From Anaerolineae bacterium (GTDB taxonomy: Bacteria > Chloroflexota > Anaerolineae > B4-G1 > SLSP01): a stretch of DNA of 64,000 nucleotides. Position 1 is the stretch's first letter. Every line of letters starts with the position of its first letter. The DNA is taken from assembly GCA_034429475.1 (NCBI GenBank), contig DAOUGD010000159.1, positions 1,604 through 65,603 of the forward strand. Direction: 5' to 3'. Positions 4,938 through 57,995 of this stretch are shown piece by piece. The notes beneath the pieces are model-generated. The model saw only the letters and a program-made list of their open reading frames with translations, was not told the origin of the DNA and ran no database searches. Made by a program: the position numbers and the translations under genes.

Positions 4938-5864
4938 ATGGAAACAGAGAACGTAAAACAGGGCAAACCGGCCTTCCTGGCGGGGGTGCGCTTTCAACCG
5001 GCGGGCAAGCCGTATCATTTCAATATTCCCGGCACAATGGCGGTGCGGGTTGACGACTGGGTCGTGGTGGAGACAGTCTACGGGGAGCAAGTGGGCCGGA
5101 TAGTGTGCGCGCTGAACGAAGCGCCCGAAGGCATATCGCCCAAGAAACTGAAGCCGCTGCTGCGTCTGGCAACCGGCCTGGACATGGCGCGCTATTACGT
5201 GATGCTGGAGCGCAGCAAACGCTTGTTAGAAGTTGGCAAGGAAGAGACACGTACACACGCCCCGGAACTTAAGCTGTTCGCGGCAGAATTTACGCTGGAT
5301 GGCAGCAACGCCCTCGTCTCGTGTACCGGCAACGCCAGCAAGAAACAACTGGCTAACCTGCGCCGCCGACTGGTGAGCCGGATGAACTGCCGCATCGAAC
5401 TCCACCCGGTCGGGCCGCGCGACCACGCGAAGGTGCTACAAGGGTACGGCGTCTGCGGCGAGGAACGCTGCTGCGGGCGATTCCTTACAGAATTTCAGGC
5501 CGTGTCCATCCGCATGGCGAAAGATCAGACGATCTCGATGGCCCCGACGGACATCACCGGCATGTGCGGGCGGCTGCGCTGCTGCCTCGGCTACGAACAC
5601 GAAGTCTATCTCGAAGAGGCAAAACTGCTGCCCCGCCTCAAATCGCGCGTGCGCACGGAGAAAGGCATCGGACGGGTGATCGATCTGGACATCCTCAAAG
5701 GCGATGTCGTCGTCGAAATTCCCCCCGACGGCCCTCGCGTGGAGCGACAACGTTTCCGCTTTGCCGCGAGTGAGGTACAGGTCGTGGCCCAGCCGGGCGC
5801 GCCAGCCCCCCCGGCGGCAGAGGCCGAAGACGCCGACGCAGATATAGTCCCTGAAGACGATTGA
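4938..5864 (+). CDS. PSP1/RicT (YaaT)-family Fe-S protein
   Basis: GVCGEERCC and ITGMCGRLRCCLGYE cysteine motifs of the PSP1 C-terminal domain. Confidence 0.9.
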   Translation: METENVKQGKPAFLAGVRFQPAGKPYHFNIPGTMAVRVDDWVVVETVYGEQVGRIVCALNEAPEGISPKKLKPLLRLATGLDMARYYVMLERSKRLLEVGKEETRTHAPELKLFAAEFTLDGSNALVSCTGNASKKQLANLRRRLVSRMNCRIELHPVGPRDHAKVLQGYGVCGEERCCGRFLTEFQAVSIRMAKDQTISMAPTDITGMCGRLRCCLGYEHEVYLEEAKLLPRLKSRVRTEKGIGRVIDLDILKGDVVVEIPPDGPRVERQRFRFAASEVQVVAQPGAPAPPAAEAEDADADIVPEDD

Positions 5865-5877
5865 CGCAGGCCCCCCT

Positions 5878-6639
5878 ATGGTCGCCCGAATTTGGCCCAT
5901 CGTAGTAGCCTTGCCAATTTTGCCGCGCCTTCTCTTGCTGGCCTGGGTGCTGGAACTGCTGGCGCTGCCGGCGCTCAAAAAGCGTTGGGGCGCTGAAGCG
6001 GAACGGGCGGCCATCAATCTAGGCGTGCTGCTGCAAGCCGCCACCGGCCTTGCTATGTTGGCGGCGGCGTGGGGCTTGGGGCCGACGTTGCGCGTGGCGC
6101 TCCTGGTGCTGGCGCTGGGCTGGGGCGTGGAATACCTCGGCGCGCATACCGGGCTGCCCTTTGGCCGCTATCACTACACCGCCCGCCTGCAACCGCAGCT
6201 AGGCGGCGTGCCCCTCTTGGTCCCCCTGGCGTGGCTGATGATGCTTCCTCCGGCCTGGGCCGTGGCGCGCCTGGTCGCCGGCGGCCCCGGAATTGCCTTT
6301 ATCCTCACGGCGGCGCTGGCCTTCACAGCCTGGGACCTCTTTCTCGATCCACAGATGGTGGCGTGGGGCTGCTGGGTATGGGATCAACCGGGCGGCTACT
6401 TTGGTATCCCCTGGCAAAACTACGCCGGCTGGCTGCTGTCAGCCGCCGTGATGACGGCGCTGGCGGCGCCGCTGAACGTTCCCGCGCCCTTCCCCACAGC
6501 GCCCTTGCTGCTCGTTTATACACTCACCTGGCTCTTGCAGTCCTTCGCCCAGTTCGTCTTCTGGAAATTGCGCGGACCGGCGCTTTGCGGCACGATCGGC
6601 ATGGGGCTATGGATGGCCTGGGCCTGGCTGGCAATGTAA
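5878..6639 (+). CDS. cruF: Carotenoid 1',2'-hydratase, CruF/DUF422 family
   Basis: E..G..TG.PFGRYHYT, GVPLLVPLAW, WDLFLDPQMV, GIPWQNYAGW motifs; carotenoid gene context. Confidence 0.85.
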   Translation: MVARIWPIVVALPILPRLLLLAWVLELLALPALKKRWGAEAERAAINLGVLLQAATGLAMLAAAWGLGPTLRVALLVLALGWGVEYLGAHTGLPFGRYHYTARLQPQLGGVPLLVPLAWLMMLPPAWAVARLVAGGPGIAFILTAALAFTAWDLFLDPQMVAWGCWVWDQPGGYFGIPWQNYAGWLLSAAVMTALAAPLNVPAPFPTAPLLLVYTLTWLLQSFAQFVFWKLRGPALCGTIGMGLWMAWAWLAM

Positions 6640-6649
6640 AACAAATACT

Positions 6650-7240
6650 ATGAGCATTTTCATCTGGACTCTGGGCAGTTTTCTCCTGGGCGCGTTGCCC
6701 TTCTCCTTGCTCATCGGCAAGTGGGCGCTGCGCACCGACATCCGCCGCGTGGGGGATGGCAACCCCGGCGCGACCAACGTATTGCGGGCCGGCAGTCGGG
6801 CCTGGGGACTGGCGGCGATGTTTCTGGATATGCTGAAAGGCGCGCTGCCGGTCGCCCTGGCTTACATCCTCTATGAGATACGCGGATGGGCCATCATCCC
6901 CATCGCGCTGGCGCCGGTCTGCGGGCACATCTTCTCCCCGTTCCTGCGCGGGCGCGGCGGCAAGGGCGTCGCCGCCACCGGCGGCGTCTGGATCGGCCTC
7001 ACCTACGGCGTGGCGACCGTCATCGGCGCGTTGGGGATGAGCGCGGCATACCTGGTGAGCGACAACTCCGGGTGGGCCGTGGCCCTGGGATTGAGCGGGA
7101 TGGGCGCGTACCTGGCCCTGGGCCGGCGCGATCCGGTCCTGATAACGATCTGGGCCGTCAACGCGGCGCTGGTGCTATGGCGCTACCGGGATACGCTGCG
7201 CCAACGGCCCCACCTGCGCGCGTGGATCAAAAGGAAATAA
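6650..7240 (+). CDS. PlsY-family acyltransferase, probably acting on carotenoid glycosides
   Basis: GDGNPGATNVLR, D..KG, GH.FSPFL..RGGKGVA PlsY motifs; sits between cruF and a GT2. Confidence 0.8.
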   Translation: MSIFIWTLGSFLLGALPFSLLIGKWALRTDIRRVGDGNPGATNVLRAGSRAWGLAAMFLDMLKGALPVALAYILYEIRGWAIIPIALAPVCGHIFSPFLRGRGGKGVAATGGVWIGLTYGVATVIGALGMSAAYLVSDNSGWAVALGLSGMGAYLALGRRDPVLITIWAVNAALVLWRYRDTLRQRPHLRAWIKRK

Positions 7241-7244
7241 CACG

Positions 7245-8378
7245 ATGGGACTCACGTGGCTCGCGCTTCTGACCTCCCTCATCCTGATCGGCATCGCCGC
7301 CATCGCCATCGTGAACGTGCCGCCCTTCCCCAGGCGGGACGCCGCCCCGCCCCCGCCGACATTCCCCCTGGTCTCGTTGCTCGTCCCCGCCCGCAACGAA
7401 GCCGCCGGCATCGCGGAAACCGTGCGCCGGTTGCTGGCGCAGGATTACCCGTGTTACGAACTGCTGCTGCTCGACGATCACTCCACCGACGGCACGGCGG
7501 ACGTCGCCCGCGCGGCCGCCGGGGCCGACGCGCGCCTGCGCCTCCTTCAGGGCGCTCCGCTGCCCGCCGGGTGGCAGGGCAAGAGTTGGGCCTGCCACCA
7601 GTTGGCCGAGGCCGCCCACGGCGAGCTGCTGGTCTTTACCGACGCCGATGTCGCGTGGGAACCCGGCGCGCTGGCTCGCCTGGTGAGCGAGATGCAGCGC
7701 CGAGGCAGCGACTTGCAGACCGTGTGGCCCACGCAAATCACCGTCACCTGGGGGGAGCGCCTAATTGTGCCGCTGCTGGCCTTCGTCATTGTCGGCTACC
7801 TGCCGGTGCTGGCAGTGCATCACATCCCCTGGCCCATCTTCGCCGCCGCCATCGGACAATGCCTGGCCTTTCGCCGCAGCGCCTATCACGCCATCGGCGG
7901 CCACGCAGCCGTGCGCGCCAGCATCATGGATGACATGGCCTTCGCCAAAGCCATCAAACAGCGCCGCTTGAAGCTGCGGATGGCCGACGCTGCCGGGTTG
8001 CTCCACTGTCGGATGTACCGGCGCTGGGCAGAGGTGCGCGACGGCTTCGCCAAAAATATTCTGGCCGGGCACAGCCATAGCCTCCTGCTGCTCCTGCTCT
8101 CCTGGGCCTTCCACTGGCTGGTGTTCCTCGTGCCGTGGGTGTGGCTGGGCCTGGGGTGGCTCGGCGGGCCGCCGGGCTGGCCGCTGTGGCCGCTGTGCCT
8201 CATCGGGCTGGGCGTCGGCGTCCGCGCGATCAGCGCCGCCCTCAGCCGCCAACGGCTGGCGGACGCGCTCTGGCTGCCCGTGTCCGTCATCCTGATGGCG
8301 CGCATCGCCACGCAGGCCATCGCCTGGAAAGTGCGCCACGGCGGCGTCTACTGGAAAGGCCGCCTCGTGCAAGCATAA
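7245..8378 (+). CDS. GT2 glycosyltransferase, carotenoid glucosyltransferase (CruC/CrtQ-like)
   Basis: VPARNE, DDHSTD, GWQGKSWACHQL, FTDAD, GQCLAFRRSAY..IGGH, C-terminal TMs ending WKGR. Confidence 0.85.
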   Translation: MGLTWLALLTSLILIGIAAIAIVNVPPFPRRDAAPPPPTFPLVSLLVPARNEAAGIAETVRRLLAQDYPCYELLLLDDHSTDGTADVARAAAGADARLRLLQGAPLPAGWQGKSWACHQLAEAAHGELLVFTDADVAWEPGALARLVSEMQRRGSDLQTVWPTQITVTWGERLIVPLLAFVIVGYLPVLAVHHIPWPIFAAAIGQCLAFRRSAYHAIGGHAAVRASIMDDMAFAKAIKQRRLKLRMADAAGLLHCRMYRRWAEVRDGFAKNILAGHSHSLLLLLLSWAFHWLVFLVPWVWLGLGWLGGPPGWPLWPLCLIGLGVGVRAISAALSRQRLADALWLPVSVILMARIATQAIAWKVRHGGVYWKGRLVQA

Positions 8379-8417
8379 CCCCCGGCGTGTGGTCGCACCT
8401 ACGAGATAGAAGATTTT

Positions 8418-8621
8418 ACCGCGGAGCGCGCTGAGTTCGCCGAGTTTTTCAACCTGTGCAATAGGGATAAATTTGTCAGCAGATTAAGCAGATTGAGCAG
8501 ATTTTTTCTCTTAATCCGCTAAATCTGCTCAATCTGCTGACAGAAAATAGGCCATTCAGTACTTCTATTGCACAGGTCGAAGTTTTTATCTTTTCTCGGC
8601 GCTCTTTGCGGCCTCTGCGGT
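8418..8621. repeat. Triple-nested inverted repeat (composite palindrome)
   Basis: Outer arms 8418-8444/8595-8621; middle arms ACCTGTGCAATAG 8452-8464 / CTATTGCACAGGT 8565-8577; inner AGCAGATT-type palindrome 8474-8542. Confidence 0.9.
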
Positions 8622-8774
8622 GAAAAACGGTCTGGATTTCATCAATTCCATGATAAAATAATGGGTTATGTTTCATTTTGTGAAGCGGATCGGGGGCCGC
8701 AACCACAAGGCGACGGGAGGCGACCATCGCCCGTTTAACGCAATTTTCGGACTCATTCTTATGGGGGAAACACT

Positions 8775-10268
8775 ATGACATCAGCAATCATAATCGGCGC
8801 GGGCATGGGTGGATTGGCCGCCGCCTTGCGTTTGCGACAGCATGGCTTTACTGTGACCGTACTCGAAAAGCAGCCCCGCCCCGGCGGACGCAGCAACGTT
8901 CTGGAAGAAAACGGCTTTCGGGCCGATACCGGGCCTACCATCCTGGTGATGAAGTACGTCTTTGAGGAGCTATACCGCGCGTTGGGGCTGAACCTGGACG
9001 AGCGCGTGCGCTTTGTGCCGCTCGATCCCAATTACCGCATCTACTTCCACGACGACACGAGCCTCGACTTGTTCGGCAATATGGCGCGGCTGTCGGCTGA
9101 AGTGGAGCGCATCGAGCCGGGCGCGACCGAGCGGCTGTTTCGCTTCGTCGGCGCGGGGGCGCAGAAGTATGACCTGGCGATGGAATTCGTCGAGCGCAAC
9201 TACGATCACTTATGGGAACTGGCGAACCCGCGCGCCGGGCTGCGTCTGGTGCGCACGCAAGCGTACCAGCAGCTCTACCACCAGGTCGCCGGCTTCTTCA
9301 AGACCGATAAACTGCGCAAAGCGTTCTCGTTTCATTCGATGTTCTTGGGATTGTCGCCCTTCAAGGCGCTGGCGATGTACAGCCTGATCACCTACGCCGA
9401 TCTGGTGTATGGGATGTACTTCCCCATGGGCGGCATCTACAGCCTGATCGAAGACCTGCTCGCCCTGGCGCGCGAGCGGGATGTGGAAGTGCGCACCGAC
9501 GCGCCGGTGGCTCAAATCCTCGTTGAAGCCGGCCGCGCGGTAGGCGTCAAACTGGAATCCGGGGAGACGCTGCGCGCGGACATGGTCATCTCCAACGCCG
9601 ACCTGCCCTACACATACCAGACGTTGATCCCGGCGGCCTACCGCAAGCAATACTCCGACGCGCGGCTCCAACGCATGGAGTACGCCTGTTCCGGCTACAT
9701 TCTCTTCCTGGGCGTGGACCGGCAGTATCCCCAGATGCGTCACCAGGGGCTGTTCTTCGCCGAGGATTACCGCGCCAATCTCGACGCTATTTTCAGGACG
9801 CATACCATCCCCGACGACATTTCCTTCCATCTGAACAACCCTACCATCACCGATCCGAGCCTGGCGCCGCCGGGCCACAGCCTGCTCTACGTCCTCGCGC
9901 CGATGCCCAACTTGCAAGGGACGGTGGATTGGGACGGCGCCGCGCCGCGCGTCCGCGACAAGCTGCTCACCCGGCTGGAGCGCATTGTGGACCCCGACCT
10001 GCGCCGCCACATCGTCTGGGAGCGGGAGTATCGCCCGACGGATTGGCTGCGCGACACCAACGCGGTGTACGGCACGGCCTTTGGCTCGCTGGCGCACGGC
10101 TTCTTTCAATCGTCCTACTTCCGCCCGCACAACAAGGCTCGCGACATTGGGGGATTGTATTTCGTCGGCCAGGGCACTTACCCCGGCATTGGGATGCCGA
10201 TGGTGCTGATTTCGGCCCGGCTGCTCACCGAACGGATTTTGCGCGATGTGGGGGGAAGCCATGGGTAA
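8775..10268 (+). CDS. crtI: Phytoene desaturase (CrtI family)
   Basis: IIIGAGMGGL FAD motif, DTGPT, YFPMGG, ISNAD, LYFVGQGTYPGIGMPMVLISA. Confidence 0.9.
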   Translation: MTSAIIIGAGMGGLAAALRLRQHGFTVTVLEKQPRPGGRSNVLEENGFRADTGPTILVMKYVFEELYRALGLNLDERVRFVPLDPNYRIYFHDDTSLDLFGNMARLSAEVERIEPGATERLFRFVGAGAQKYDLAMEFVERNYDHLWELANPRAGLRLVRTQAYQQLYHQVAGFFKTDKLRKAFSFHSMFLGLSPFKALAMYSLITYADLVYGMYFPMGGIYSLIEDLLALARERDVEVRTDAPVAQILVEAGRAVGVKLESGETLRADMVISNADLPYTYQTLIPAAYRKQYSDARLQRMEYACSGYILFLGVDRQYPQMRHQGLFFAEDYRANLDAIFRTHTIPDDISFHLNNPTITDPSLAPPGHSLLYVLAPMPNLQGTVDWDGAAPRVRDKLLTRLERIVDPDLRRHIVWEREYRPTDWLRDTNAVYGTAFGSLAHGFFQSSYFRPHNKARDIGGLYFVGQGTYPGIGMPMVLISARLLTERILRDVGGSHG

Positions 10269-11211
10269 GCTACCGCCTGAATTGGCGGCAGATTACGCGG
10301 CCTGCCGCCAAATCATGTTCGCCGCGAGCAAAAACTACTCGTTTGCCAGCCGGGTGCTGCCGCCGGACAAGTTGCCGCACGTCGAGGCGCTCTACGCGCT
10401 GATGCGGGTGGGCGACGACCGGGTGGATGTGTCGGCGACGGGGTTTGACTCGGCGCTGGACGCCATTCAGGATTGGGAAACGCGCTACTGGGACGCTTTC
10501 GCGCAGGGGCGCGCCGACCATCCCGTGATGCGCGCCTACCTCCACACGGCCTTGACGTACCGCATCCCGCCGGAAACCATGCGCCCATATTTTCGCGCCA
10601 TGCGGGACGACCTCACCGTCACCCGCTTCCCCACCTTTGCCGATTTGCTACACTACATGGAAGGGAGCGCGCTGCCGGTGGGGCGCGCCCTGACGCATAT
10701 CCTGGGCGTGCGCGCGCCGCAGACCCTGGCGCAAGCGCTCTCCCACGCCGACAGCCTCGCGACCGCGATGCAGTTGAGCAACTTCTGGCGCGATATTGCG
10801 GAGGATTGGGCGCGCGGGCGCATCTATCTGCCGTTGGAGGATATGCAGCGGTTTGGCGTCGCCGAAGCGGAACTGAGCCGGGGAGACGTCTCGCCGGCCT
10901 TTGCCGCGTTGTTGCAATTTGAGATCGCGCGCACCGAGTCGTACTATCAACATGCCTACGACGGCGTTTCATGCCTGGCGACCGGGCGTTGGGGAGTGAT
11001 GAGCAGTCTTCACATCTACCACATGATCTTGCGCGACATCCGCCGCCGGCGCTATGATGTGTTCACCCGCCGGGCGGGGACCAATCACCTGGAAAAATTC
11101 GCCTGCGCCACCCTGGCGTGGTTCGAAACGAACGGCTTGATGTGCCGCACCATCCCAGGCGCGCGCACGCCGGAAGCCGCTCCCATGATGGAAATTTCAG
11201 GGAACGCTTAA
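10261..11211 (+). CDS. crtB: Phytoene synthase
   Basis: YALMRVGDDRVD, MQLSNFWRDIAED..RGRIYLP. ATG 10261 overlaps the crtI stop. Confidence 0.9.
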   Translation: MGKLPPELAADYAACRQIMFAASKNYSFASRVLPPDKLPHVEALYALMRVGDDRVDVSATGFDSALDAIQDWETRYWDAFAQGRADHPVMRAYLHTALTYRIPPETMRPYFRAMRDDLTVTRFPTFADLLHYMEGSALPVGRALTHILGVRAPQTLAQALSHADSLATAMQLSNFWRDIAEDWARGRIYLPLEDMQRFGVAEAELSRGDVSPAFAALLQFEIARTESYYQHAYDGVSCLATGRWGVMSSLHIYHMILRDIRRRRYDVFTRRAGTNHLEKFACATLAWFETNGLMCRTIPGARTPEAAPMMEISGNA

Positions 11212-14031
11212 CTCCAGCGCCGGCGCGCCGTTGGCGCTGAGGATTTCTCCCGTTTCCTGACGATACCACCCCACCCGCAGGATATAAGGCCCTGCCGGCA
11301 AGGCGTCCGGCAAGGTCAGCGTGTGGTCATCTGCGACAATTTCCCCCGCCAGCCACAACGAGGTGGGATAGGTGGCGCGGCGCGGCGCTTCGTCCACCTG
11401 CGCGATGAGCGTTTCCCCGGTTTCGGTCAGCAAGTGGATGAACACCACGTAATCCGCGCGCACCTCGGCCTGCGTCTGCCAGTACAACGTCACCCCGAAA
11501 GCCTGCCCGGCCTGCGGCGCGGCGGCGTCGTAGCCGAGCAGGCGCAGATGTCCCCCACCCTCAGCTTCCACAAACTCCGCCTGGAAAGGATGTTGCACGG
11601 CCGGCAAAGCGAAATTCCGCGCAAGCGCCTGGACTTCCACGACGCCGAGGGCGACCGGCGGCGCAGCATCCAGCGCAAGCGCCGCCGTATACGCGCCCGG
11701 CGCGAGCGTCTTGGGCAGGCGCAACAGATAACGGCCCTCCACCACCTCGCCGACGCGCCAGGCGGCGAGCGGGAAGTCGGGCGACGGCGGCCCGCTGTAG
11801 AGCGTGTGCGTCTCCGGGCCGGTCAACGTCAAAGACAGGGAAGTGGCGGAGGGAACGTCCGCCGCCTGCCAGCACGCTTTCACCAGAAGGCGCGCGCCCG
11901 GCAGAGCGGTTTCCACCGGCGGCGTCCACCCCAGGAGACGGACGTCCCCCTGCGTCACCGGATCACGACGGGGTATGTCGGGGCAAGCGGCCGCCGCTTC
12001 TTCCGGCGTGGGGACGCGGGTCGCCGGGGCAACCGCCAGGCCGGTTGCGGGCAGGAGCGCCTCCAGCCCGGCGAAGCGTTCATCTTTCAGGCGGGGCAGC
12101 GCTGTCCCGGCGTCGGGATTGTAGAAACCCACGCTCAACTGATAGCCGTCGCCCGGCGGCGTCCCGACAGGGGGCGTGAGCGTCAGTTGATCCAACACCA
12201 CGTCGCCCGGCGTCCACTGCTCCGGCGGATAGTGGAAGGCCATCGTCCGCGCCCACTCGCCGGTCTGCGGGTGGGTCAGACGCACCACCGGCTCCAATGC
12301 CGGATAGGGCGCGCACGCCTCCCACGTGAGCAGCACCGGACACGGTTCGGCAACGCGACACTCTGCGGCGGGGCGGGCGTCGTGAAGCAGCACGACGTGG
12401 GCGAAGTCCGCCGCCGCGCCGTCCGCCGCCGGGCGCAGCGCGGCGATGGCGGCAGCGTCCAGTCGGTAAGCGGTGAGCGCGGGCGTCCCGTCCGGGCCGG
12501 GATAGTCGCGGCGCGTCCAGGCGCGGGCGACGGCGTCCGGCCAGGCGGCGGGCGCGGGCAGAGAGCGCGGGATGAGATAGAGCGCGTCGCCCTGGGGCGG
12601 CAGCACCAGCGACGCGCCGCCGGTGAGCCATTTGGCCGCGCTATACTGGCGGGCCAGCGCGGCGACGGTAGGATGGCGGTAGTGTTGGCTGGCGATGTAG
12701 ACGGTGGTGTCGCGTAGATCGGTCGCGTCAAGGACTTGCGCGGTCAACGTCATGTCGCCATCCGTCGTGGCGAACAATGCGGGAGATGCGGCCCACGTCC
12801 GGTAACTTTGCCCGGCCCACAGTCCGCCGCCGCCGAGCAGCAACAGGGCGCAGCCCACGCGCGCGGCAGGCCGGAGGCGCAGCGTCTCCCAAAGCACAAC
12901 CAGCCCCCAGGCCGGAAGGATCGCCAGAAAGGGCCACAGCCCCACCAGCCGCAGATTGCTCGGCGTGATTTCGCCGGTGGCGAGCGCGCTGGGCAGCAGC
13001 ATCACCAAGAGCGCGCCCAACAAAAAGTGGCGGGAGGAATGTCTCAACGGATGGAACGGAGGGGAACGGAAGGGGAATCCGTTAAAATCCGTTAAATCCG
13101 TTGAGAAAAGCCATGCCCCCAATCCAATGATCGCCAGGAGCGCGGAAAGGGGATCCCATAGCGGGCGTCCAGGGATGTTGAAACGCACGTAAGCGTCGCC
13201 GGCGCCGGGCCAGACGAGAGCGCGGGCGCACTGCCAGAAACCGCGCGCGGCATCCTGCCAGGAGGCGGCGGCCACTTGCGTGATGCGGGTGCTGAACGCT
13301 TCGGGGTGGCGCAGGAAGTGCCATCCCAGCGGGGCAAAGACGACGAGGGCGACGGCGAGCGCGAGGAGCAATCGCCAAAATCGCTTCCGGCGTTCTTCCG
13401 GCGAGACGCCAAGGAGCGTCGCGGCCAGCGCCAATCCCAGGGGGATGGGGAACAGCCGCGCCGCCAGGTACGTGTAGCCGGTCAGCCCCAGGCAGAGGCC
13501 GCCGGCCGCAAACCAGCGCGTTTTGCCGGTGCGCAGTCCGAACCAGAGGGCGGCAACGGTGAGGGCTTGCAGCAACGGCTGCGAGATGGCGCGGAATCCG
13601 TAGCGGCTGAGGAGCAGGTGCGGAAAAGCGACCGCGACGCCGCCCGCCGCGAGGAGCGCGATCTGCCGGGCGCGGCGGCCAGGGCCGAGCAGGGCGCGGG
13701 TCGCCGGGTAGGTCGCGGCGACGGTCAGCACACCCAACAGCGCAGACGCCAGCCGCATTCCCCATACGGCCTGCCCGGTGATCCAGACCCAGAAGGCGGC
13801 GACGTAAAAAAAGAGGACTTCCTTGCCGGTGTAGGCGTGGATGAAAATGGGCCGGTAGCCGCCAGAGACGATCTGACGGATGAGAATGGTGTTGGCGGCC
13901 TCGTCATAGTGCAAGCCCAAGGGAAGGTGGGGCAAATCCCACAGGCGCAGCACAGTTGCAAGCAAGATAATGAGGAGAATGCCCCACCGGTGATTCTGGA
14001 TTTTGGATTTTGGATTTTGGATTTTGGACAA
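11197..14031 (-). CDS. GT-C (ArnT/PMT_2, GT39-like) membrane glycosyltransferase with repeated C-terminal Ig-like domains
   Basis: GLHYDEAAN motif, about 12 TMs, repeated LLGY..VTLYW..Y.VFIHL..YPTSLW..GEIV.D modules. Start uncertain (TTG 14031 used). Confidence 0.8.
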   Translation of the reverse strand: MSKIQNPKSKIQNHRWGILLIILLATVLRLWDLPHLPLGLHYDEAANTILIRQIVSGGYRPIFIHAYTGKEVLFFYVAAFWVWITGQAVWGMRLASALLGVLTVAATYPATRALLGPGRRARQIALLAAGGVAVAFPHLLLSRYGFRAISQPLLQALTVAALWFGLRTGKTRWFAAGGLCLGLTGYTYLAARLFPIPLGLALAATLLGVSPEERRKRFWRLLLALAVALVVFAPLGWHFLRHPEAFSTRITQVAAASWQDAARGFWQCARALVWPGAGDAYVRFNIPGRPLWDPLSALLAIIGLGAWLFSTDLTDFNGFPFRSPPFHPLRHSSRHFLLGALLVMLLPSALATGEITPSNLRLVGLWPFLAILPAWGLVVLWETLRLRPAARVGCALLLLGGGGLWAGQSYRTWAASPALFATTDGDMTLTAQVLDATDLRDTTVYIASQHYRHPTVAALARQYSAAKWLTGGASLVLPPQGDALYLIPRSLPAPAAWPDAVARAWTRRDYPGPDGTPALTAYRLDAAAIAALRPAADGAAADFAHVVLLHDARPAAECRVAEPCPVLLTWEACAPYPALEPVVRLTHPQTGEWARTMAFHYPPEQWTPGDVVLDQLTLTPPVGTPPGDGYQLSVGFYNPDAGTALPRLKDERFAGLEALLPATGLAVAPATRVPTPEEAAAACPDIPRRDPVTQGDVRLLGWTPPVETALPGARLLVKACWQAADVPSATSLSLTLTGPETHTLYSGPPSPDFPLAAWRVGEVVEGRYLLRLPKTLAPGAYTAALALDAAPPVALGVVEVQALARNFALPAVQHPFQAEFVEAEGGGHLRLLGYDAAAPQAGQAFGVTLYWQTQAEVRADYVVFIHLLTETGETLIAQVDEAPRRATYPTSLWLAGEIVADDHTLTLPDALPAGPYILRVGWYRQETGEILSANGAPALELSVP
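13042..13106. repeat. AACGGA-type palindrome inside the GT-C coding sequence
   Basis: TCTCAACGGATGGAACGGAGGGGAACGGAAGGGGAATCCGTTAAAATCCGTTAAATCCGTTGAGA. Confidence 0.85.
13993..14027. repeat. Heptamer tandem repeat (ATTTTGG)x4 plus one imperfect unit
   Basis: Read directly; encodes SKIQNPKSKIQN on the minus strand. Confidence 0.9.
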
Positions 14032-14084
14032 GGTTAGGAATTTTGGAGAGTCTGGCGCGTTCGGAGACCGGCCCAACCAGCCCT

Positions 14085-14112
14085 TACTCCCTATTCCCTA
14101 CTCCCCACTCCC
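14085..14112. repeat. Imperfect heptamer tandem repeat
   Basis: TACTCCC TATTCCC TACTCCC CACTCCC. Confidence 0.7.
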
Positions 14113-14117
14113 TGTTT

Positions 14118-14705
14118 TTACGGCTTCGGCTGGCCCTGTTGGGGAGCGGCGTCGGTGCAGCCTTCGAGGTTGGCGCAGAGCGTGTCGCACATCGCCTGGG
14201 TGGTGCCGGCGTAGAGGATGAAGAACGTGTTGCCGTCGCGTTCCAGGGTGTAGTTGCCGGTGCAGGGCTTGAAGGTGATGGCTTGCGTGCCGAATCCCTC
14301 TTTGGCCGTGGGGTTGACACAGCGGAAGAAGTTGACGGGATCGAGCAGGGCCTTTTTGTCGGCGACAGCGACCGCCCCGGCCTCCAACGGCTCTTCCTGA
14401 TTGCTGTATACCCGCGCTTTTACCGCGCCGATTTCCTGATAACAGGTCACGATGTGGTCTACGCCGGCGATAGTCGCGGAAAGTTCAGGGTGGCCTGCCA
14501 GCAGGGCCGCGCCCTCACTCAGGTTGGAAATGTAGCCGGTCAGGGTTTCCCCTTCGATCGCGTCGTAGCCGCTCAGGGTAGGCAACAGCTTCTCGGCGGG
14601 AGCCATCTCCGGCTTTTTCCCCAGGCCAGGGATGAATTCGCAGCCGCTTAGCAGAACAATCAGCAAGAGGGCATAAAGCAGGCGGTGGATGGATAATTTT
14701 GACAT
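14118..14705 (-). CDS. Hypothetical lipoprotein
   Basis: Signal peptide with LLSGC lipobox; SD AAGGAG; four further Cys in the C-terminal half. Confidence 0.75.
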   Translation of the reverse strand: MSKLSIHRLLYALLLIVLLSGCEFIPGLGKKPEMAPAEKLLPTLSGYDAIEGETLTGYISNLSEGAALLAGHPELSATIAGVDHIVTCYQEIGAVKARVYSNQEEPLEAGAVAVADKKALLDPVNFFRCVNPTAKEGFGTQAITFKPCTGNYTLERDGNTFFILYAGTTQAMCDTLCANLEGCTDAAPQQGQPKP

Positions 14706-14719
14706 AACTTAATCTCCTT

Positions 14720-14750
14720 TCTCAACGGATTGAACGGATTGAACGGAAGG
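14720..14750 (+). repeat. Half element of the AACGGA palindrome family
   Basis: TCTCAACGGATTGAACGGATTGAACGGAAGG, near-identical to the left arm at 13042. Confidence 0.8.
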
Positions 14751-14936
14751 TATACGAAGTATAACGCAGCCTGAAAGCGCGTCAATGAAATTAACGAAAA
14801 GGCTCCGGGCGAGTAATAGTGGTATAATCCCCCAACGGTTGGATGAAATGTAACGCCAACTTTAGTTCCCAGCAAACTGAAGTTTGCGTTACTTCGCCAT
14901 TGGCTATTCGCTATTTTTAAGTGGAGTGATTTAAGA

Positions 14937-15749
14937 ATGATTGCTTACCTCAAGGAATTGTGGGCCTATCGTGAGTTGGTCTATAATCTGGTGCTGCGCG
15001 ATCTCAAGGTGCGGTATAAAAATTCGGTGCTGGGCGTCGTGTGGTCATGGTTGAATCCCTTGCTGATGATGTTGGTGTTCACGCTGGTGTTCGATGTGTT
15101 GGGGCTGGCGCGGCAGGACATCTCCAATTATCACATCTTCTTCTTGAGCGCGCTGCTGCCCTGGAACTTCTTCTCCGGCTCGGTGATGGGGGGGATTCCA
15201 TGCATCGTCAGCAATGGACACTTGATCAAGAAAGTGTATTTCCCCCGCGAGGTGCTGCCAATTTCGGTGGTGCTGTCGAATATGGTGAACTTTGTGGTGG
15301 CGCTGCCGGTTTTCTTCCTGCTGGCGCTAATTTTCGGCCAGCGGATCACGCCGTGGGTGCTGCTCCTGCCCATCCCCATTTTGATTCAAGTCATTTTTGC
15401 GTGCGGGATCGTGTTGTTTCTTTCAACGTTGGAAGTGTTTTATCGGGATACGCACATGTTGATGGACCCGCTTATCCAGGCGTGGTTCTTCATCACGCCC
15501 ATCATTTATTCGTACAAAGACCTCCCCGACAAGGTGACGCTTTTGAACATCACCTTCAACCCGCAGACCTGGATTTTCCGCCTGAACCCGATGGCGTCCA
15601 TTATCAACACGTATCAGGATATTTTGTACCGCGGTGAACTGACCCGGTGGGATTTCCTGTCGCGCACGGGGGCGACGGCGCTGGTGGTGTTGCTGTTTGG
15701 CTACTGGTTTTTCCGGCGCTTCAGCGGCAAGTTTGGAGAGACGGTGTAA
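14937..15749 (+). CDS. ABC-2 type polysaccharide export permease (Wzm/TagG-like)
   Basis: RDLKVRYKNSVLGVVWSWLNPLL, IKKVYFPREVLP, YRD, LNPMASII motifs. Confidence 0.9.
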   Translation: MIAYLKELWAYRELVYNLVLRDLKVRYKNSVLGVVWSWLNPLLMMLVFTLVFDVLGLARQDISNYHIFFLSALLPWNFFSGSVMGGIPCIVSNGHLIKKVYFPREVLPISVVLSNMVNFVVALPVFFLLALIFGQRITPWVLLLPIPILIQVIFACGIVLFLSTLEVFYRDTHMLMDPLIQAWFFITPIIYSYKDLPDKVTLLNITFNPQTWIFRLNPMASIINTYQDILYRGELTRWDFLSRTGATALVVLLFGYWFFRRFSGKFGETV

Positions 15750-15764
15750 TTTATCCCCAACCGG

Positions 15765-15773
15765 TGTTATACT
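15765..15773 (+). promoter_or_regulatory. Extended -10 promoter for the MFS-micropeptide operon, leaderless
   Basis: TG-T-TATACT ending 15773; ATG at 15780; no SD. Confidence 0.55.
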
Positions 15774-15779
15774 GAAAGC

Positions 15780-16835
15780 ATGAATGGAAAGACCGTAGTC
15801 AGCAACCTGTCAGTCTATGGCCTCACCCACGCGCTGGTAGACGCGGCGTGTATCGCCACCCTTTTCGCCATCGTCGCGCGCGATCCTACTAACCCGCAGA
15901 GCGCTTTCCTGATCATCTTCTACAACGTGCTGGCCTTTGCCACGCAACCGCTCTTTGGTCTGTTGGCCGATCGCTTCAACGCGCCCGTCCACGCGGCGGT
16001 GTGGGGGACGCTGTTGGTCGCAGCGGCCACGTTGGTTCTCCCGCTCCCGCTGCTGGCGGTGGGGATAACGGGGATCGGCAATGCCTTGTTTCACGTCGGG
16101 GGCGGCGCCATCAGCCTGAAGCTGGCCGATGGCAAGGCGGCCCTGCCGGGGATTTACGTGGCGCCCGGCGCATTAGGGTTGGCGCTAGGGCTGTGGATCG
16201 GCAAAAGCGGGCACTTTGTCGCCTGGCCGTTCATCCTGCTGTTGCTGGCCGCCGCCGGGCTGATGGTGAAACTCCCCCGTCCGGCGCCCGCCGCGCCCCG
16301 CCCGTTGCCGGCCGATCTGCGCTGGTTCGAGGCGGTGCTCCTGTTGCTGCTCGTCTCCGTGGCGATTCGGGGCATGGTGGGCATGAGCCTCGTGCTGCCG
16401 TGGAAGTCGGAGCCGGTTTTGCTCGTTATCCTGACAGCGGCGGTCGTGTTGGGAAAAGCCCTGGGCGGTGTCCTGGGCGACCGGTTCGGGTGGACCAGAG
16501 TGGCTGTGGCGGGGCTAGTCCTCGCAACCCCTTTGCTCACGTTCTTCGCCCATACGCCGGCGCTCGCCATCCTGGGCGTCTTTTTGTTCAACCTGACCAT
16601 GCCGGTGACGCTCATCTGTGTTTCCGAGATGTTGCCGGGGTATAGCGGCTTTGCTTTCGGGTTGACGGCGTTGGCCCTGGTCATCGGCGCCTGGCCCGTC
16701 TTTACGCCGCTCCGCACTTTGACAGGCCATCCGGCAGCCATCTTCGCCGCCATTCTCATTTCCATAGTCGCTTTGTACGGGGGGCTGCGGTTGTACACCG
16801 ATCACTTTAGCGCGCCCGTCTCAGCGCATGGTTGA
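15780..16835 (+). CDS. Atypical MFS-like transporter
   Basis: About 11-12 hydrophobic segments; motif-A-like GLLADRF and GGVLGDRFG; polar motifs THALVD, YNVLAFATQP, GNALFHVGGG. Confidence 0.75.
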   Translation: MNGKTVVSNLSVYGLTHALVDAACIATLFAIVARDPTNPQSAFLIIFYNVLAFATQPLFGLLADRFNAPVHAAVWGTLLVAAATLVLPLPLLAVGITGIGNALFHVGGGAISLKLADGKAALPGIYVAPGALGLALGLWIGKSGHFVAWPFILLLLAAAGLMVKLPRPAPAAPRPLPADLRWFEAVLLLLLVSVAIRGMVGMSLVLPWKSEPVLLVILTAAVVLGKALGGVLGDRFGWTRVAVAGLVLATPLLTFFAHTPALAILGVFLFNLTMPVTLICVSEMLPGYSGFAFGLTALALVIGAWPVFTPLRTLTGHPAAIFAAILISIVALYGGLRLYTDHFSAPVSAHG

Positions 16836-16869
16836 ATGTAACCTGGGGCCAAGCGCAAAGGAGACTGCT

Positions 16870-17085
16870 ATGAAAACGGTTTTTCCGCAACTATCCATGG
16901 GCATTCTATCCTTTCTGACAGAAGCAATATGCGCTGACATCCCTCCACCAGACATATATTCCACGGAGGCAGTAGAAGCGACGACGAATTCTATGCTGGG
17001 ACTTGGTCTTGTTGTCATCATTATGGTTCTCGCCGCGTTTGTAGTGCTCAGGGCAATCAACAAGAAGAGACGTACTGAAAAATAG
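16870..17085 (+). CDS. Small membrane protein 1 (71 aa; leader-ADIPPP-TM-RAINKKRR)
   Basis: SD AAGGAG, ATG 16870; shares architecture with the next two ORFs. Confidence 0.7.
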   Translation: MKTVFPQLSMGILSFLTEAICADIPPPDIYSTEAVEATTNSMLGLGLVVIIMVLAAFVVLRAINKKRRTEK

Positions 17086-17101
17086 ACGATAGGAGGAGGC
17101 T

Positions 17102-17314
17102 ATGAAACCAGGATTGTTGCTGCTATGGGGATTGGAGTTGCTGGCACGGCTGCCGCTGCAAGGTATATTTGCCGATGCTGCGCCGCCGATGGAGTTTTTC
17201 ATCGTGCTGGGGGTGGGGGCGCTGATTGTGCTCGGCTTCATTGTCGTTGTCATTGTCGGCATTTCGATTCTGGTGATCAGGGCAATCAAGAAGCGCAGAA
17301 CTGCGGAAGAGTAG
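17102..17314 (+). CDS. Small membrane protein 2 (70 aa; leader-ADAAPP-TM-RAIKKRR)
   Basis: Strong SD AGGAGG; paralog of its neighbours. Confidence 0.75.
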   Translation: MKPGLLLLWGLELLARLPLQGIFADAAPPMEFFIVLGVGALIVLGFIVVVIVGISILVIRAIKKRRTAEE

Positions 17315-17326
17315 CAGAAGGGTGCT

Positions 17327-17533
17327 GTGAAACCAGGATTCTTGCAACTATTGGGGCTGATTTTACTCTTGCGCCTGCCAGAGCAGGGCGTGTACCTTGA
17401 CCTTGTGCCCCCATGGCCGCTGTTCGGAATAGGACTGAGTATCGTGGTGGCGCTTGGTATCTTGATCGCCGTCATCGTTCTCCTCGCATATTTGGCATTG
17501 AGAGGAGTCAAGGATACGTACTCTCGAAAATGA
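17327..17533 (+). CDS. Small membrane protein 3 (68 aa; leader-LDLVPP-TM-RGVK..RK)
   Basis: GTG start with AGAAGGG SD; 5' DNA very similar to protein 2. Confidence 0.7.
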   Translation: MKPGFLQLLGLILLLRLPEQGVYLDLVPPWPLFGIGLSIVVALGILIAVIVLLAYLALRGVKDTYSRK

Positions 17534-17561
17534 GAGCTGAACACGCGGTTCACGGGGCGCT

Positions 17562-17897
17562 ATGTTGGGCAAATACCTCCTCGCCCTGGACCTGACCCTG
17601 ATCATTGAAGGGGGCGTGGCCTATCTGCTCGGATTCCGCAGCCGCCGGGACGTGTTGACCGTTGCCCTGGTCAGCGTGATCACACACCCAATTCTGAACT
17701 ATGTCCTCCTGGTTCTCGGCTATCTGGGCCTGGAGGTGACTCCAGGGTTGGTCACACTCCTGGAAGTCCTGGTGGTCGTTGCGGAATGGCGCTTGCTGGC
17801 CTATGCTTCCGGCAAATCCCAAAGGCAATGCCTCGTCACATCCTTATTGGCAAATGCGGCGTCATTTCTCGTGGGTATCTTGCTCTTTTGGCTATGA
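17562..17897 (+). CDS. Uncharacterised 4-TM membrane protein (111 aa)
   Basis: Four hydrophobic helices carrying LTLIIE, ITHP, LEVLVVVAE and SLLANAASF. Confidence 0.75.
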   Translation: MLGKYLLALDLTLIIEGGVAYLLGFRSRRDVLTVALVSVITHPILNYVLLVLGYLGLEVTPGLVTLLEVLVVVAEWRLLAYASGKSQRQCLVTSLLANAASFLVGILLFWL

Positions 17898-17990
17898 TGA
17901 GCAACCCTGTGGCTCGGGCCGGTCTCTGACCGCGCCTGCGATGTCGCCGCGACTTCTAAATTACCCTGGAACGCGAAAGGGATTTCGCGG

Positions 17991-18653
17991 CTACTGGAGG
18001 GCTTGCCACACGCACATCACGGCCAGGAAGAGCAGCGTCAGAATGAGAATGACCTTCACCCCACGGGCCACCACCCGCCGGATCGTGGTTATCTTCCCCT
18101 GATCGAAGAGGAGTGGCCGCCCGGTCAGCGCCGAAAGCAGACCGCCCAAAACACCCACCAGGCCAACAGCCAATGGCGTCGTCCAGATCTGACCGCTCAA
18201 ATACCATCCCATCCAGGTCGCCAAAAACGCTACCAGCCCCACCCCTATGCCGATCCAGCCCATCTGCCGGAAAAAGCGACGGCGCGCGGGATCGTCGGCA
18301 TCGCGCTCCAGCATTTCCCCTTGGCGCCGCCGCTGCGTGGCGAAACTTTCCCGGAAAGTCGCCGCGGCAGACACGGCCTCACGCCTTTCTTCCCCGAACA
18401 GCCAGGGCATGTCTGTGAAGTAGCGTAACACCGTCGTCGGAATCATCCAAACGATAAAGACCAGCAGATATGCCAACAGCGCGCCGAGAATCTGGCTCTC
18501 GCGCCGCCCAATCCACAGCAAGGCTTGTTGCAGCCAGTGATATGGCCCGCTGTCCAGGATCAGCCAGCGCAGCCAGATAGCGGTGATCACCCCCAACAAA
18601 ATGAAAAGGATGACCCGAAAAACCGGGGCGGAAATGTAACGTTTGCGTTTCAT
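17991..18653 (-). CDS. Hypothetical membrane protein
   Basis: SD AGGAG; about 5 TMs with a charged cytoplasmic loop. Confidence 0.7.
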   Translation of the reverse strand: MKRKRYISAPVFRVILFILLGVITAIWLRWLILDSGPYHWLQQALLWIGRRESQILGALLAYLLVFIVWMIPTTVLRYFTDMPWLFGEERREAVSAAATFRESFATQRRRQGEMLERDADDPARRRFFRQMGWIGIGVGLVAFLATWMGWYLSGQIWTTPLAVGLVGVLGGLLSALTGRPLLFDQGKITTIRRVVARGVKVILILTLLFLAVMCVWQALQ

Positions 18654-18688
18654 CGGTTTGCTCCTTGTGTGCTAAACCCTCTTTTTCG

Positions 18689-57921: not shown

Positions 57922-57995
57922 GCCCCCATCGTCTAGTCTGGTCAGGACACAGGCCTTTCAAGCCTGGCACATGGGTTCGAATCCCGTTGGGGGCA
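57922..57995 (+). tRNA. tRNA-Glu (anticodon TTC), CCA not encoded
   Basis: GCCCCCA acceptor stem, CAGGC-CTTTCAA-GCCTG anticodon arm, GGTTCGAATCC T-arm. Confidence 0.96.

Follow-up and report, generated by a model that had tools for sequence, protein, structure and literature searches.

A three-part inner-membrane module with N-terminally Asp-tagged proteins, present in an Anaerolineae genome and in many other bacterial and archaeal lineages

Tripartite ATP-independent periplasmic (TRAP) and tripartite tricarboxylate (TTT) transporters combine a small protein of four transmembrane helices (4-TM; DctQ or TctB) with a permease of 12 TM helices (DctM or TctA), and the two are sometimes fused; a third part, which bears a signal peptide, stands on the outer face of the membrane, and the three genes are co-transcribed and self-contained. 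In the lipobox/LspA pathway, a short motif that lies exactly at the junction of signal peptide and mature protein is shared by clients that are otherwise dissimilar, and the processing enzyme is a very small 4-TM membrane protein. In dedicated sorting systems, namely sortase/LPXTG, exosortase/PEP-CTERM, archaeosortase, rhombosortase and the CPBP-type myxosortases, the gene for a membrane enzyme lies beside a few dedicated targets. All of these invite comparison with a locus in a 64,000-nucleotide (nt) window, the whole stretch of DNA analysed here, from an Anaerolineae bacterium. Five genes in a row encode a major facilitator superfamily (MFS)-like protein, three peptides of about 70 amino acids (aa) that carry an Asp motif after an N-terminal hydrophobic segment (pep1, pep2 and pep3), and a 4-TM protein (Table 1). 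These five genes form a real and widespread inner-membrane module that is carried by many bacterial and archaeal lineages, and searches of Pfam, NCBIfam, PADLOC, PDB sequences, Foldseek and the literature returned no described equivalent.

The likeness to TRAP and TTT transporters, fusions included, is one of architecture only, and membership was rejected because no Pfam match to DctQ, DctM, TctA or TctB was found. The permease of the module has an MFS fold and not the DctM/TctA fold, and its third part is a short Asp-tagged protein, often of about 45 residues when mature, rather than a solute-binding protein. Unlike the lipobox, the module has Asp instead of Cys at position +1; the invariant residues of its 4-TM protein are Glu, Asn and Ser rather than the Asp dyad of LspA, no sequence or fold match links the two, some clients of the module are leaderless, and its MFS partner is without counterpart in the LspA pathway. 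The sorting systems place their signal at the C-terminus, whereas the motif of the module is N-terminal and independent of the TM helix and tail. Membership of the sortase, exosortase, archaeosortase or rhombosortase families was rejected, as no enzyme-family or catalytic-motif match was found and the motif is N-terminal in the large relatives. The layout of the small forms of the module agrees with that of dedicated sorting systems, the CPBP-type myxosortases among them, as described in a preprint (bioRxiv 10.1101/2023.06.07.544157).

The evidence that these genes belong together is chiefly comparative. With the MFS-like protein as the starting point, 80 loci were collected from species-representative genomes labelled with at least ten phyla, and in 66 of the 80 a homologue of the 4-TM gene lies no more than 3 kb from the MFS-like gene. 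The bacterial labels include Chloroflexota, Bacillota/Clostridia, Bacteroidota, Melainabacteria, Omnitrophota, Planctomycetota, Actinomycetota, Mycoplasmatota/Izemoplasmatales and groups of the candidate phyla radiation (CPR); the archaeal ones include Woese- and Pacearchaeota (DPANN) and a metagenome-assembled genome (MAG) labelled Methanosarcinales. Such labels come from MAG bins and have to be read with care. The peptides of a locus labelled Magasanikbacteria (L025) and of another labelled Gammaproteobacteria (L026) are nearly the same, differing at one residue in 77, and at least one of the two labels, of which that of L026 is doubtful, is probably a binning error. The taxonomic spread itself is taken as real because the best-segment identity of the MFS protein across loci ranges from 98% down to 28%. 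Among the 14 loci with no 4-TM gene nearby, the contig stops right behind the MFS gene in six, and one (L084) contains an insertion; in the latter, about 3.3 kb with a transposase-like open reading frame (ORF) of 205 aa (5585–9109 of that locus) split the module, and the peptide and 4-TM genes resume beyond.

The reverse search gave a matching picture. An alignment of the Chloroflexota-type 4-TM protein retrieved 61 metagenome loci, 32 of which could be evaluated because they include at least 700 nt upstream; the MFS-like gene is found on the same strand in 24 of these 32, and a peptide in 23. The expectation of the initial annotation, that the MFS-like gene, the 4-TM gene and small ORFs should occur together across distant phyla, was therefore borne out in both directions. 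Small ORFs in which the Asp motif is combined with a TM helix and basic tail are part of the module in 52 of 82 loci, against nine of 3,430 control small ORFs, and the tagged protein is nearly always found beside the MFS and 4-TM core. In many loci the stop and start codons of the MFS, peptide and 4-TM genes overlap. When the neighbours of the 80 loci were clustered, no fourth gene was recurrent across clades, and the module is accordingly regarded as self-contained; wzm, GT-C glycosyltransferases and an M28 peptidase are lineage-specific neighbours. The MFS-like gene has no relative in the viral contigs, phage records or plasmid records that were searched.

Fusions of these genes are also found. 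Nine metagenome loci (L138, L140–146 and L148), some of them cut by contig ends, have one ORF to which both core profiles match, and the five full-length examples (Table 1) are 440–455 aa long. In these proteins the loop after MFS TM11 runs into the first helix of the 4-TM domain (LT..IE motif), MFS TM12 is missing and 15 helices result, an arrangement which suggests that the separate 4-TM protein sits where MFS TM12 would be. The gene next to the fusion encodes a leaderless protein that starts MTLYL(S/L)DVIP... and continues through about 100 aa of Glu/Lys-rich linker to a C-terminal anchor. A second kind of fusion occurs in Acetivibrio alkalicellulosi (Clostridia; L047, 3720–4595, minus strand), where one protein of 292 aa comprises a signal peptide, the junction YA/DMGP (here and below, the slash stands directly before the tag Asp), an ectodomain some 140 residues long and a canonical 4-TM domain. 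This gene is divergent from a regular module, the MFS gene there is split into two ORFs, and the record is flagged UNVERIFIED_CONTAM. Since the MFS protein is joined to the 4-TM protein in one kind of fusion, and the tagged protein to the 4-TM protein in the other, they argue for a single physical unit of all three parts. Co-occurrence, fusions and the negative database and literature searches agree with what had been proposed at the outset, namely a dedicated system that matches no named one.

The three peptides of the window share one plan: a hydrophobic N-terminal segment, an Asp (D23 in pep1, D25 in pep2 and pep3) followed by x-x-Pro-Pro, a TM helix and a basic tail. In pep1 the junction ICA/D23-IPPP is followed by a Ser/Thr/Glu-rich stretch of 19 residues, the TM helix and the tail RAINKKRRTEK, while pep2 passes from its N-terminal segment through IFA/D25-AAPP and the TM helix to the tail IRAIKKRRTAEE. 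The N-terminal segment of pep3 (MKPGFLQLLG...) leads to VYL-D25-LVPP, a TM helix and a weaker basic tail, LRGVKDTYSRK. A profile was built from the peptides of other loci, with those of the window left out, and scored on the window's ORFs of at least 30 aa; it matches pep2 (2.5e-22), pep3 (7.5e-17) and pep1 (1.2e-8) far beyond chance, the next best ORF having an E-value of 1.4. That exactly these three ORFs are found upholds the earlier claim of three paralogous peptides of one architecture. It also bears on the notion that there is no system at all and that untranslated or chance ORFs merely fill the space between two unrelated membrane-protein genes, for which one could cite the GTG start of pep3, its weak ribosome-binding site and its lack of a gene call in the public record of the same genome. 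This notion is hardly credible, being contradicted by the comparative data: even pep3 fits the family profile, the profile of peptides from other phyla matches at 1e-8 to 1e-22, position and motif are kept across the 80 genome and 61 metagenome loci, and the fusions exist.

The sole universal trait of the third component is an N-terminal hydrophobic stretch followed by Asp-(Val/Ile/Leu)-(Ala/Val/Ile)-x-Pro(-Pro). Only one of 27 aligned peptides lacks the Asp, and the tag stands either directly after a signal-peptide-like sequence or, in leaderless relatives, 3–8 residues from Met1. Everything else varies. There are one to four tagged proteins per locus, and they range from about 50 to 366 aa. 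Those of Melainabacteria reach 216–366 aa, with WG_beta_rep ectodomains between the tag and a C-terminal anchor; those of Bacteroidales are of about 268 aa, start ...(G/A)/DVI(P/L) and end in a C-terminal domain of the type IX secretion system (T9SS; Por_Secre_tail) with no TM anchor; the Peribacteria protein is soluble and without any anchor; and many Bacillota and Mycoplasmatota have a form that lacks a signal peptide and begins M-x(0-6)-(F/L)-D-(V/L)-A-x-x-P. Because the N-terminal motif is kept with large ectodomains, with a T9SS domain or with no anchor, it is this motif that is the conserved handle, and not the unit of motif, TM helix and basic tail to which an analogy with exosortase/CTERM would point. 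The unit D-x-x-P, TM helix and basic tail that had been put forward for the family thus stands as regards the motif and not as regards the helix and tail, which are not universal, although the small forms do have a conserved TM helix and an I-R-x-I-K-K tail.

These same data speak to a scheme in which the small forms are cargo-less C-terminal signals, of the sortase, exosortase or rhombosortase type, that the 4-TM protein cuts. The order of motif, TM helix and basic cluster beside the gene for a small membrane protein is what such a scheme would predict. The larger relatives, however, keep the motif after the signal peptide, hundreds of residues from the TM anchor, and T9SS and soluble forms keep it with no TM helix or basic tail. 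No known sorting-enzyme family was matched, and a search with the peptide profile for large tag carriers returned 17 proteins, all of 56–79 aa and hence no large cargo, at a sensitivity reduced by the sheer size of the database and the shortness of the query. C-terminal sorting is therefore judged very improbable.

The sequence just before the Asp is informative as well. Position -1 is Ala in about one-third of the tagged proteins, which fits signal peptidase I, and Leu or Phe in about another third, which does not; in the window, pep1 (ICA/D) and pep2 (IFA/D) have the small residues at -1 and -3 that signal peptidase I accepts, and pep3 (VYL-D), with Leu at -1, does not fit. Within the Chloroflexota group conservation extends to the pre-Asp segment (FLQLLG...LPxQGV), a feature unusual for an ordinary signal peptide.

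In general form pep1–3 also resemble the coat proteins of filamentous phages: M13 procoat and Pf3 coat, with and without a signal peptide, have an acidic N-terminal tail, one TM helix and a basic C-terminus in about 45–50 mature residues. M13 procoat and Pf3 coat are inserted by YidC. A conserved charged residue lies in the substrate groove of YidC, according to a published account (PMC8920935). Identity with an inovirus major coat protein was rejected; the architecture fits, but the neighbours are cellular, with no phage genes among them, and the MFS-like protein has no relative in viral contigs or phage records. The peptides are tied to the MFS and 4-TM proteins in cellular chromosomes and bear a specific D-(V/I)-x-x-P motif.

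The 4-TM protein is modelled by AlphaFold as four helices with a predicted local distance difference test (pLDDT) score of 93. A polar core at mid-membrane is formed by E16 (TM1), T41 (TM2), E68 and E75 (TM3), and N98 and S101 (TM4). Among 131 distinct sequences from the fetched loci, E16 is kept in 120, E68 in 121, E75 in 123, N98 in 130 and S101 in 125, and the deviants are extra paralogues in Melainabacteria. Of the buried E/H/E/E/N set named in the initial annotation, the three Glu and the Asn proved almost invariant; the His (H42) is not conserved, being H, N or another residue, and T41 and S101 are. On the evidence of two basic loops, FRSRRD and SGKSQRQ, which follow TM1 and TM3, both termini are predicted to lie outside, with the conserved polar residues near mid-membrane, and the 15-helix MFS–4-TM fusion, which puts the N-terminus of the 4-TM domain outside, agrees with this charge-based topology. 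The family is large: a profile search of 1.84 billion representatives recovers 2,548 clusters (defined at 50% identity) at E <= 1e-3, with lengths of 74–164 aa among the best 150 of the 2,548. No Pfam or NCBIfam match was obtained for the protein or for 46 diverse members, the family profile matches no PDB sequence, and Foldseek of the model against PDB returned nothing at E < 1.

Known 4-TM and membrane-enzyme families were considered and rejected. An SMR (small multidrug resistance)/EmrE-like transporter agrees only in the TM1 Glu and in size; the 46 members give no Pfam Multi_Drug_Res match, and Foldseek no hit at E < 1. A CPBP/Rce1-type protease is not matched in Pfam or NCBIfam and differs in its motifs, since the single Glu of TM1 is without an Arg four residues on, H42 is not conserved, and TM4 has N98-x-x-S101 instead of HxxxN. 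Membership of the GtrA-like flippases and of LspA was rejected as well.

Copy number of the 4-TM gene is highest in Melainabacteria, with up to four paralogues, most of which are directly followed by a tagged protein of their own; in L036 (1639–5005) and L037 (2151–5005), arrays of three or four paralogues all lie upstream of a single MFS gene. In the extra paralogues E16, E68 or E75 is replaced by K or L, and only one copy per locus keeps all invariant residues. Three related loci (L101, L102 and L117) have an orphan 4-TM gene, with neither an MFS gene nor a peptide gene in its vicinity. There is a frame change after TM3 in L117 and no intact 4-TM ORF left in L101; at least two of the three copies look degraded, which is consistent with decay after loss of the partners.

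The MFS-like protein is a true but divergent and compact member of the MFS fold that belongs to no curated subfamily. It passes the Pfam MFS_1 cut-off marginally (36.6 bits against 33.4), it matches no NCBIfam family at E <= 1, and its family profile finds no PDB chain at E <= 1; yet the AlphaFold model has 12 helices (pLDDT 78.5; predicted template modelling score 0.80), and Foldseek aligns it with VMAT1/2, NorA and OxlT at probability 1.0 and TM-scores of 0.6–0.72, with YajR and FucP also matched. The description of this protein as atypical and MFS-like was thus correct. An identity as Fsr (fosmidomycin resistance) or another curated MFS subfamily was rejected for want of an NCBIfam or PDB match, and 'FSR family' names among the records are automatic JGI labels. 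The family has at least 653 homologues. In 75 diverse members about 55 positions are kept in at least 85%, and H17, D21, C24, Y48, N49, Q56, N101, H105, R197, K226, N271, M274 and T277 in at least 90%; motif A, whose consensus in loops 2-3 and 8-9 is G-x-x-x-D-R-x-G, occurs twice, as GLLADRF (60–66) and GVLGDRFGW (230–238), with D64 kept in 97% and D234 in 100%. None of the five proteins matches a PADLOC model at E <= 1.

How these parts may work together can be proposed from such data, and the preferred, though tentative, reading is an N-terminal recognition and processing system for Asp tags. The tagged proteins would be dedicated clients or partners of the MFS and 4-TM core, with the Asp segment as the recognition handle. 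This handle would dock at the outer face, in the acidic polar core of the 4-TM protein, which itself would pack on MFS TM11 at the usual place of TM12. The 4-TM protein would most likely bind and trim, or otherwise process, the stretch that immediately precedes the Asp, in closest analogy to LspA at the lipobox. The MFS partner, through its conserved cavity and alternating access, might carry across the membrane either the N-terminal segment, the leader once released, or a co-substrate, and this is the weakest step of the proposal. With tag, anchor and little else, pep1–3 would be minimal clients, and the module would be a sorting or processing system that acts on N-termini and not on C-termini. 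In favour of clients are the variable copy number, size and domains of the third part, in which the Asp motif alone is constant, and the conserved pre-Asp segment of the Chloroflexota group. The strong conservation of residues in both core proteins resembles that of an enzyme or a binding site.

The module may instead be a tripartite transporter of solutes or lipids. Its cargo, a specific small molecule, metal or lipid, would be carried by the MFS protein, to which the 4-TM protein would be an obligate small subunit, as DctQ or TctB are to their 12-TM partners; the tagged proteins would be subunits with an accessory or regulatory part or act as tethered ligands, their Asp segment plugging or gating the outward cavity. 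This is possible but doubtful. The MFS fold is genuine, with very conserved cavity residues (H17, D21, C24, N101, H105, R197, K226, N271 and M274), the MFS–4-TM fusions parallel the DctQM fusions that are generally known from TRAP systems, and genomes labelled CPR, DPANN and Izemoplasmatales, which are reduced and dependent on uptake, carry the module. Such a transporter would also agree with the translational coupling of the genes, with the TM helix and basic tail that the small forms conserve, and with the extra 4-TM paralogues of Melainabacteria, which come with tagged proteins of their own. Some MFS-fold proteins are governed by, or depend on, the N-terminus of a peptide in the outward cavity, as with ferroportin and hepcidin, or a single-pass type I partner, as with MCT and basigin. 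These eukaryotic pairs are not homologous to the module and have neither a 4-TM third component nor a conserved Asp-x-x-Pro tag. As fixed subunits the tagged proteins would be too variable (one to four copies, 50–366 aa, T9SS and soluble forms), an ectodomain of about eight residues is too small for substrate capture in the manner of a binding protein, and pairs of tagged protein and 4-TM protein with no MFS gene nearby do not fit. There is also no recurrent metabolic neighbour, and Rfam searches upstream of the module in 13 loci of Bacillota/Mycoplasmatota type and in the window found no riboswitch, only tRNAs; the sole Rfam match of the window is one tRNA gene (57922–57995, plus strand).

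Several observations also weigh against processing of the Asp tag by a three-part core. Five loci (L121, L123, L128, L131 and L134) have a tagged protein and a 4-TM protein with no MFS gene within 4 kb, for which reason these two are regarded as the tightest pair of the module, and five others (L041, L044, L048, L053 and L086) have the MFS gene and no 4-TM gene. The 4-TM protein falls in no catalytic family, is without the motifs of CPBP proteins, rhomboids, aspartyl peptidases or sortases, and has no Foldseek match at E < 1. Tags with Ala at -1 would need no more than ordinary signal peptidase I. In the rumen-type tagged proteins, the lack of a signal peptide together with the Glu/Lys linker puts access of the tag to the outer face in question. 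Lastly, translational coupling, the conserved TM helix with its I-R-x-I-K-K tail, and the pairing of 4-TM and tagged proteins in Melainabacteria fit stable subunits equally well.

Variation between close relatives raises the question of a bacteriocin-like locus, in which small cationic peptides would be exported by the MFS protein as antimicrobials or signals and the 4-TM protein would confer immunity. Compared by blastn with a MAG of the same lineage (L001), the window is 97.9% identical over 13001–17293, 77.4% over 17566–17932 and 98.4% over 17968–18664; pep3 is absent from L001, where the differing stretch corresponds to 5979–6504 (Table 1). With a 4-TM gene that is 77% identical, pep3 missing and flanks of about 98%, the peptide and 4-TM end appears to have been exchanged as a cassette. 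This cassette-like swap between otherwise 98%-identical genomes, the difference in copy number among close Melainabacteria relatives, and the presence of several paralogous hydrophobic, basic peptides beside a small multi-TM protein and a transporter are what a bacteriocin-like locus would show. Such loci evolve fast and are restricted to lineages, whereas the core of the module has invariant polar residues across bacteria and archaea, wall-less and reduced genomes included. A stop-transfer TM helix with a poly-basic anchor would keep the peptides in the membrane of the producer, some members are proteins of 200–366 aa with WG repeats or T9SS domains, and the module is not found in plasmid or phage collections. 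Membership of the ribosomally synthesized and post-translationally modified peptides or of the class II or circular bacteriocins was rejected, since no leader motif (double-glycine or other), modification enzyme, C39 peptidase, ATP-binding cassette (ABC) exporter or DUF95 was found in the window or was recurrent in the 80 loci. A bacteriocin-like function is, on balance, improbable.

At the locus itself, all five ORFs are present on one strand as first described, with intergenic gaps of 34, 16, 12 and 28 nt. The start of pep1 is most likely the ATG at 16870, which follows AAGGAG, rather than position 16828 given in a mechanical ORF list. The extended -10-like element that had been named as the module's own promoter does exist, though only as a consensus match; it is identical in L001, and its position is not kept in the other loci, where TATA-type hexamers occur at varying distances. 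As it has no -35 match, TGTTATACT was not listed by the promoter scan. The hexamer TATACT ends 6 nt 5' of the MFS start codon with no Shine-Dalgarno sequence between them, so that this candidate promoter, if used, would give a leaderless or near-leaderless mRNA. The G+C content of the pep1, pep2 and pep3 genes is 0.46, 0.55 and 0.52, respectively, against 0.64 for the MFS gene and 0.60 for the whole window.

Table 1. Coordinates of the module, its flanking genes and the full-length fusion genes.
Feature	Position	Strand	Details
Very large membrane protein gene	11197–14076	-	959 aa
Lipoprotein-type gene	14118–14705	-	195 aa; signal LLSGC
ABC-2 (wzm-like) permease gene	14937–15749	+	30 nt from MFS-like gene
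Extended -10-like element TGTTATACT	15765–15773	+	Consensus match; 3' end 6 nt before MFS ATG
MFS-like gene	15780–16835	+	351 aa; core component 1
pep1	16870–17085	+	71 aa; AAGGAG 8 nt 5' of ATG; gene call in public records
pep2	17102–17314	+	70 aa; GGAGGAGG 5' of ATG; gene call in public records
pep3	17327–17533	+	68 aa; GTG start
4-TM gene	17562–17897	+	111 aa; core component 2
Locally replaced cassette (pep2 end, pep3, 4-TM gene)	17294–17967	+	blastn against L001
Convergent gene	17991–18653	-	220-aa membrane protein
MFS–4-TM fusion, L138	2990–4312		Full length
MFS–4-TM fusion, L142	846–2183		Full length
MFS–4-TM fusion, L143	2082–3449		Full length
MFS–4-TM fusion, L145	1065–2432		Full length
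MFS–4-TM fusion, L146	2981–4306		Full length

The flanks of the module are likewise as they had been described, an orphan wzm upstream and a convergent gene downstream. The label 'orphan wzm' holds because, over about 6 kb around the wzm-like gene, the gene calls of syntenic relatives include no ABC ATPase. Both this gene and the lipoprotein-type gene upstream of it keep their position in relatives of the sub-lineage (L001 and L089) and not in other clades; the wzm gene is a neighbour in this sub-lineage only, outside the system. Further upstream, the orthologue of the very large membrane protein gives a faint PMT_2 match (GT-C glycosyltransferase-like). An M28 peptidase gene (790 aa) lies downstream of 18895, and beyond it syntenic relatives have an acetyltransferase gene and then one for a PMT_2 and NHL-repeat protein of 1,144 aa.

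The module is rated a system of a new kind, and two of its three parts are without a family model. The 4-TM family in particular has no Pfam or NCBIfam model and no structural relative, despite about 2,500 clusters at 50% identity. Its carriers have very different envelopes, comprising monoderms, diderms, wall-less Mycoplasmatota, CPR and DPANN members and a MAG labelled Methanosarcinales, which points to a basic membrane function and not to a speciality of the cell wall. In its boldest form, which is rather unlikely, the processing of Asp tags would be a new sorting or maturation pathway for proteins, common to Bacteria and Archaea. The 4-TM protein would then found a family of minimal intramembrane enzymes (glutamate peptidases or transferases) for N-terminal hydrophobic-Asp-(V/I)-x-x-Pro tags, in an obligate complex with an MFS protein that moves a polypeptide segment or a lipid or co-substrate, and not an ordinary solute. 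With its three small genes, invariant residues, natural fusions and cultivable carriers among the Clostridia (Ruminiclostridium hungatei DSM 14427, Acetivibrio alkalicellulosi DSM 17461 and Clostridium thailandense), the module is open to direct study. As a transporter, it would be the first MFS system whose 4-TM and tagged single-pass partners are obligate; as a means of processing or sorting tagged proteins, it would stand as a new counterpart of the lipoprotein and sortase-type pathways and define a minimal membrane enzyme of a new kind.

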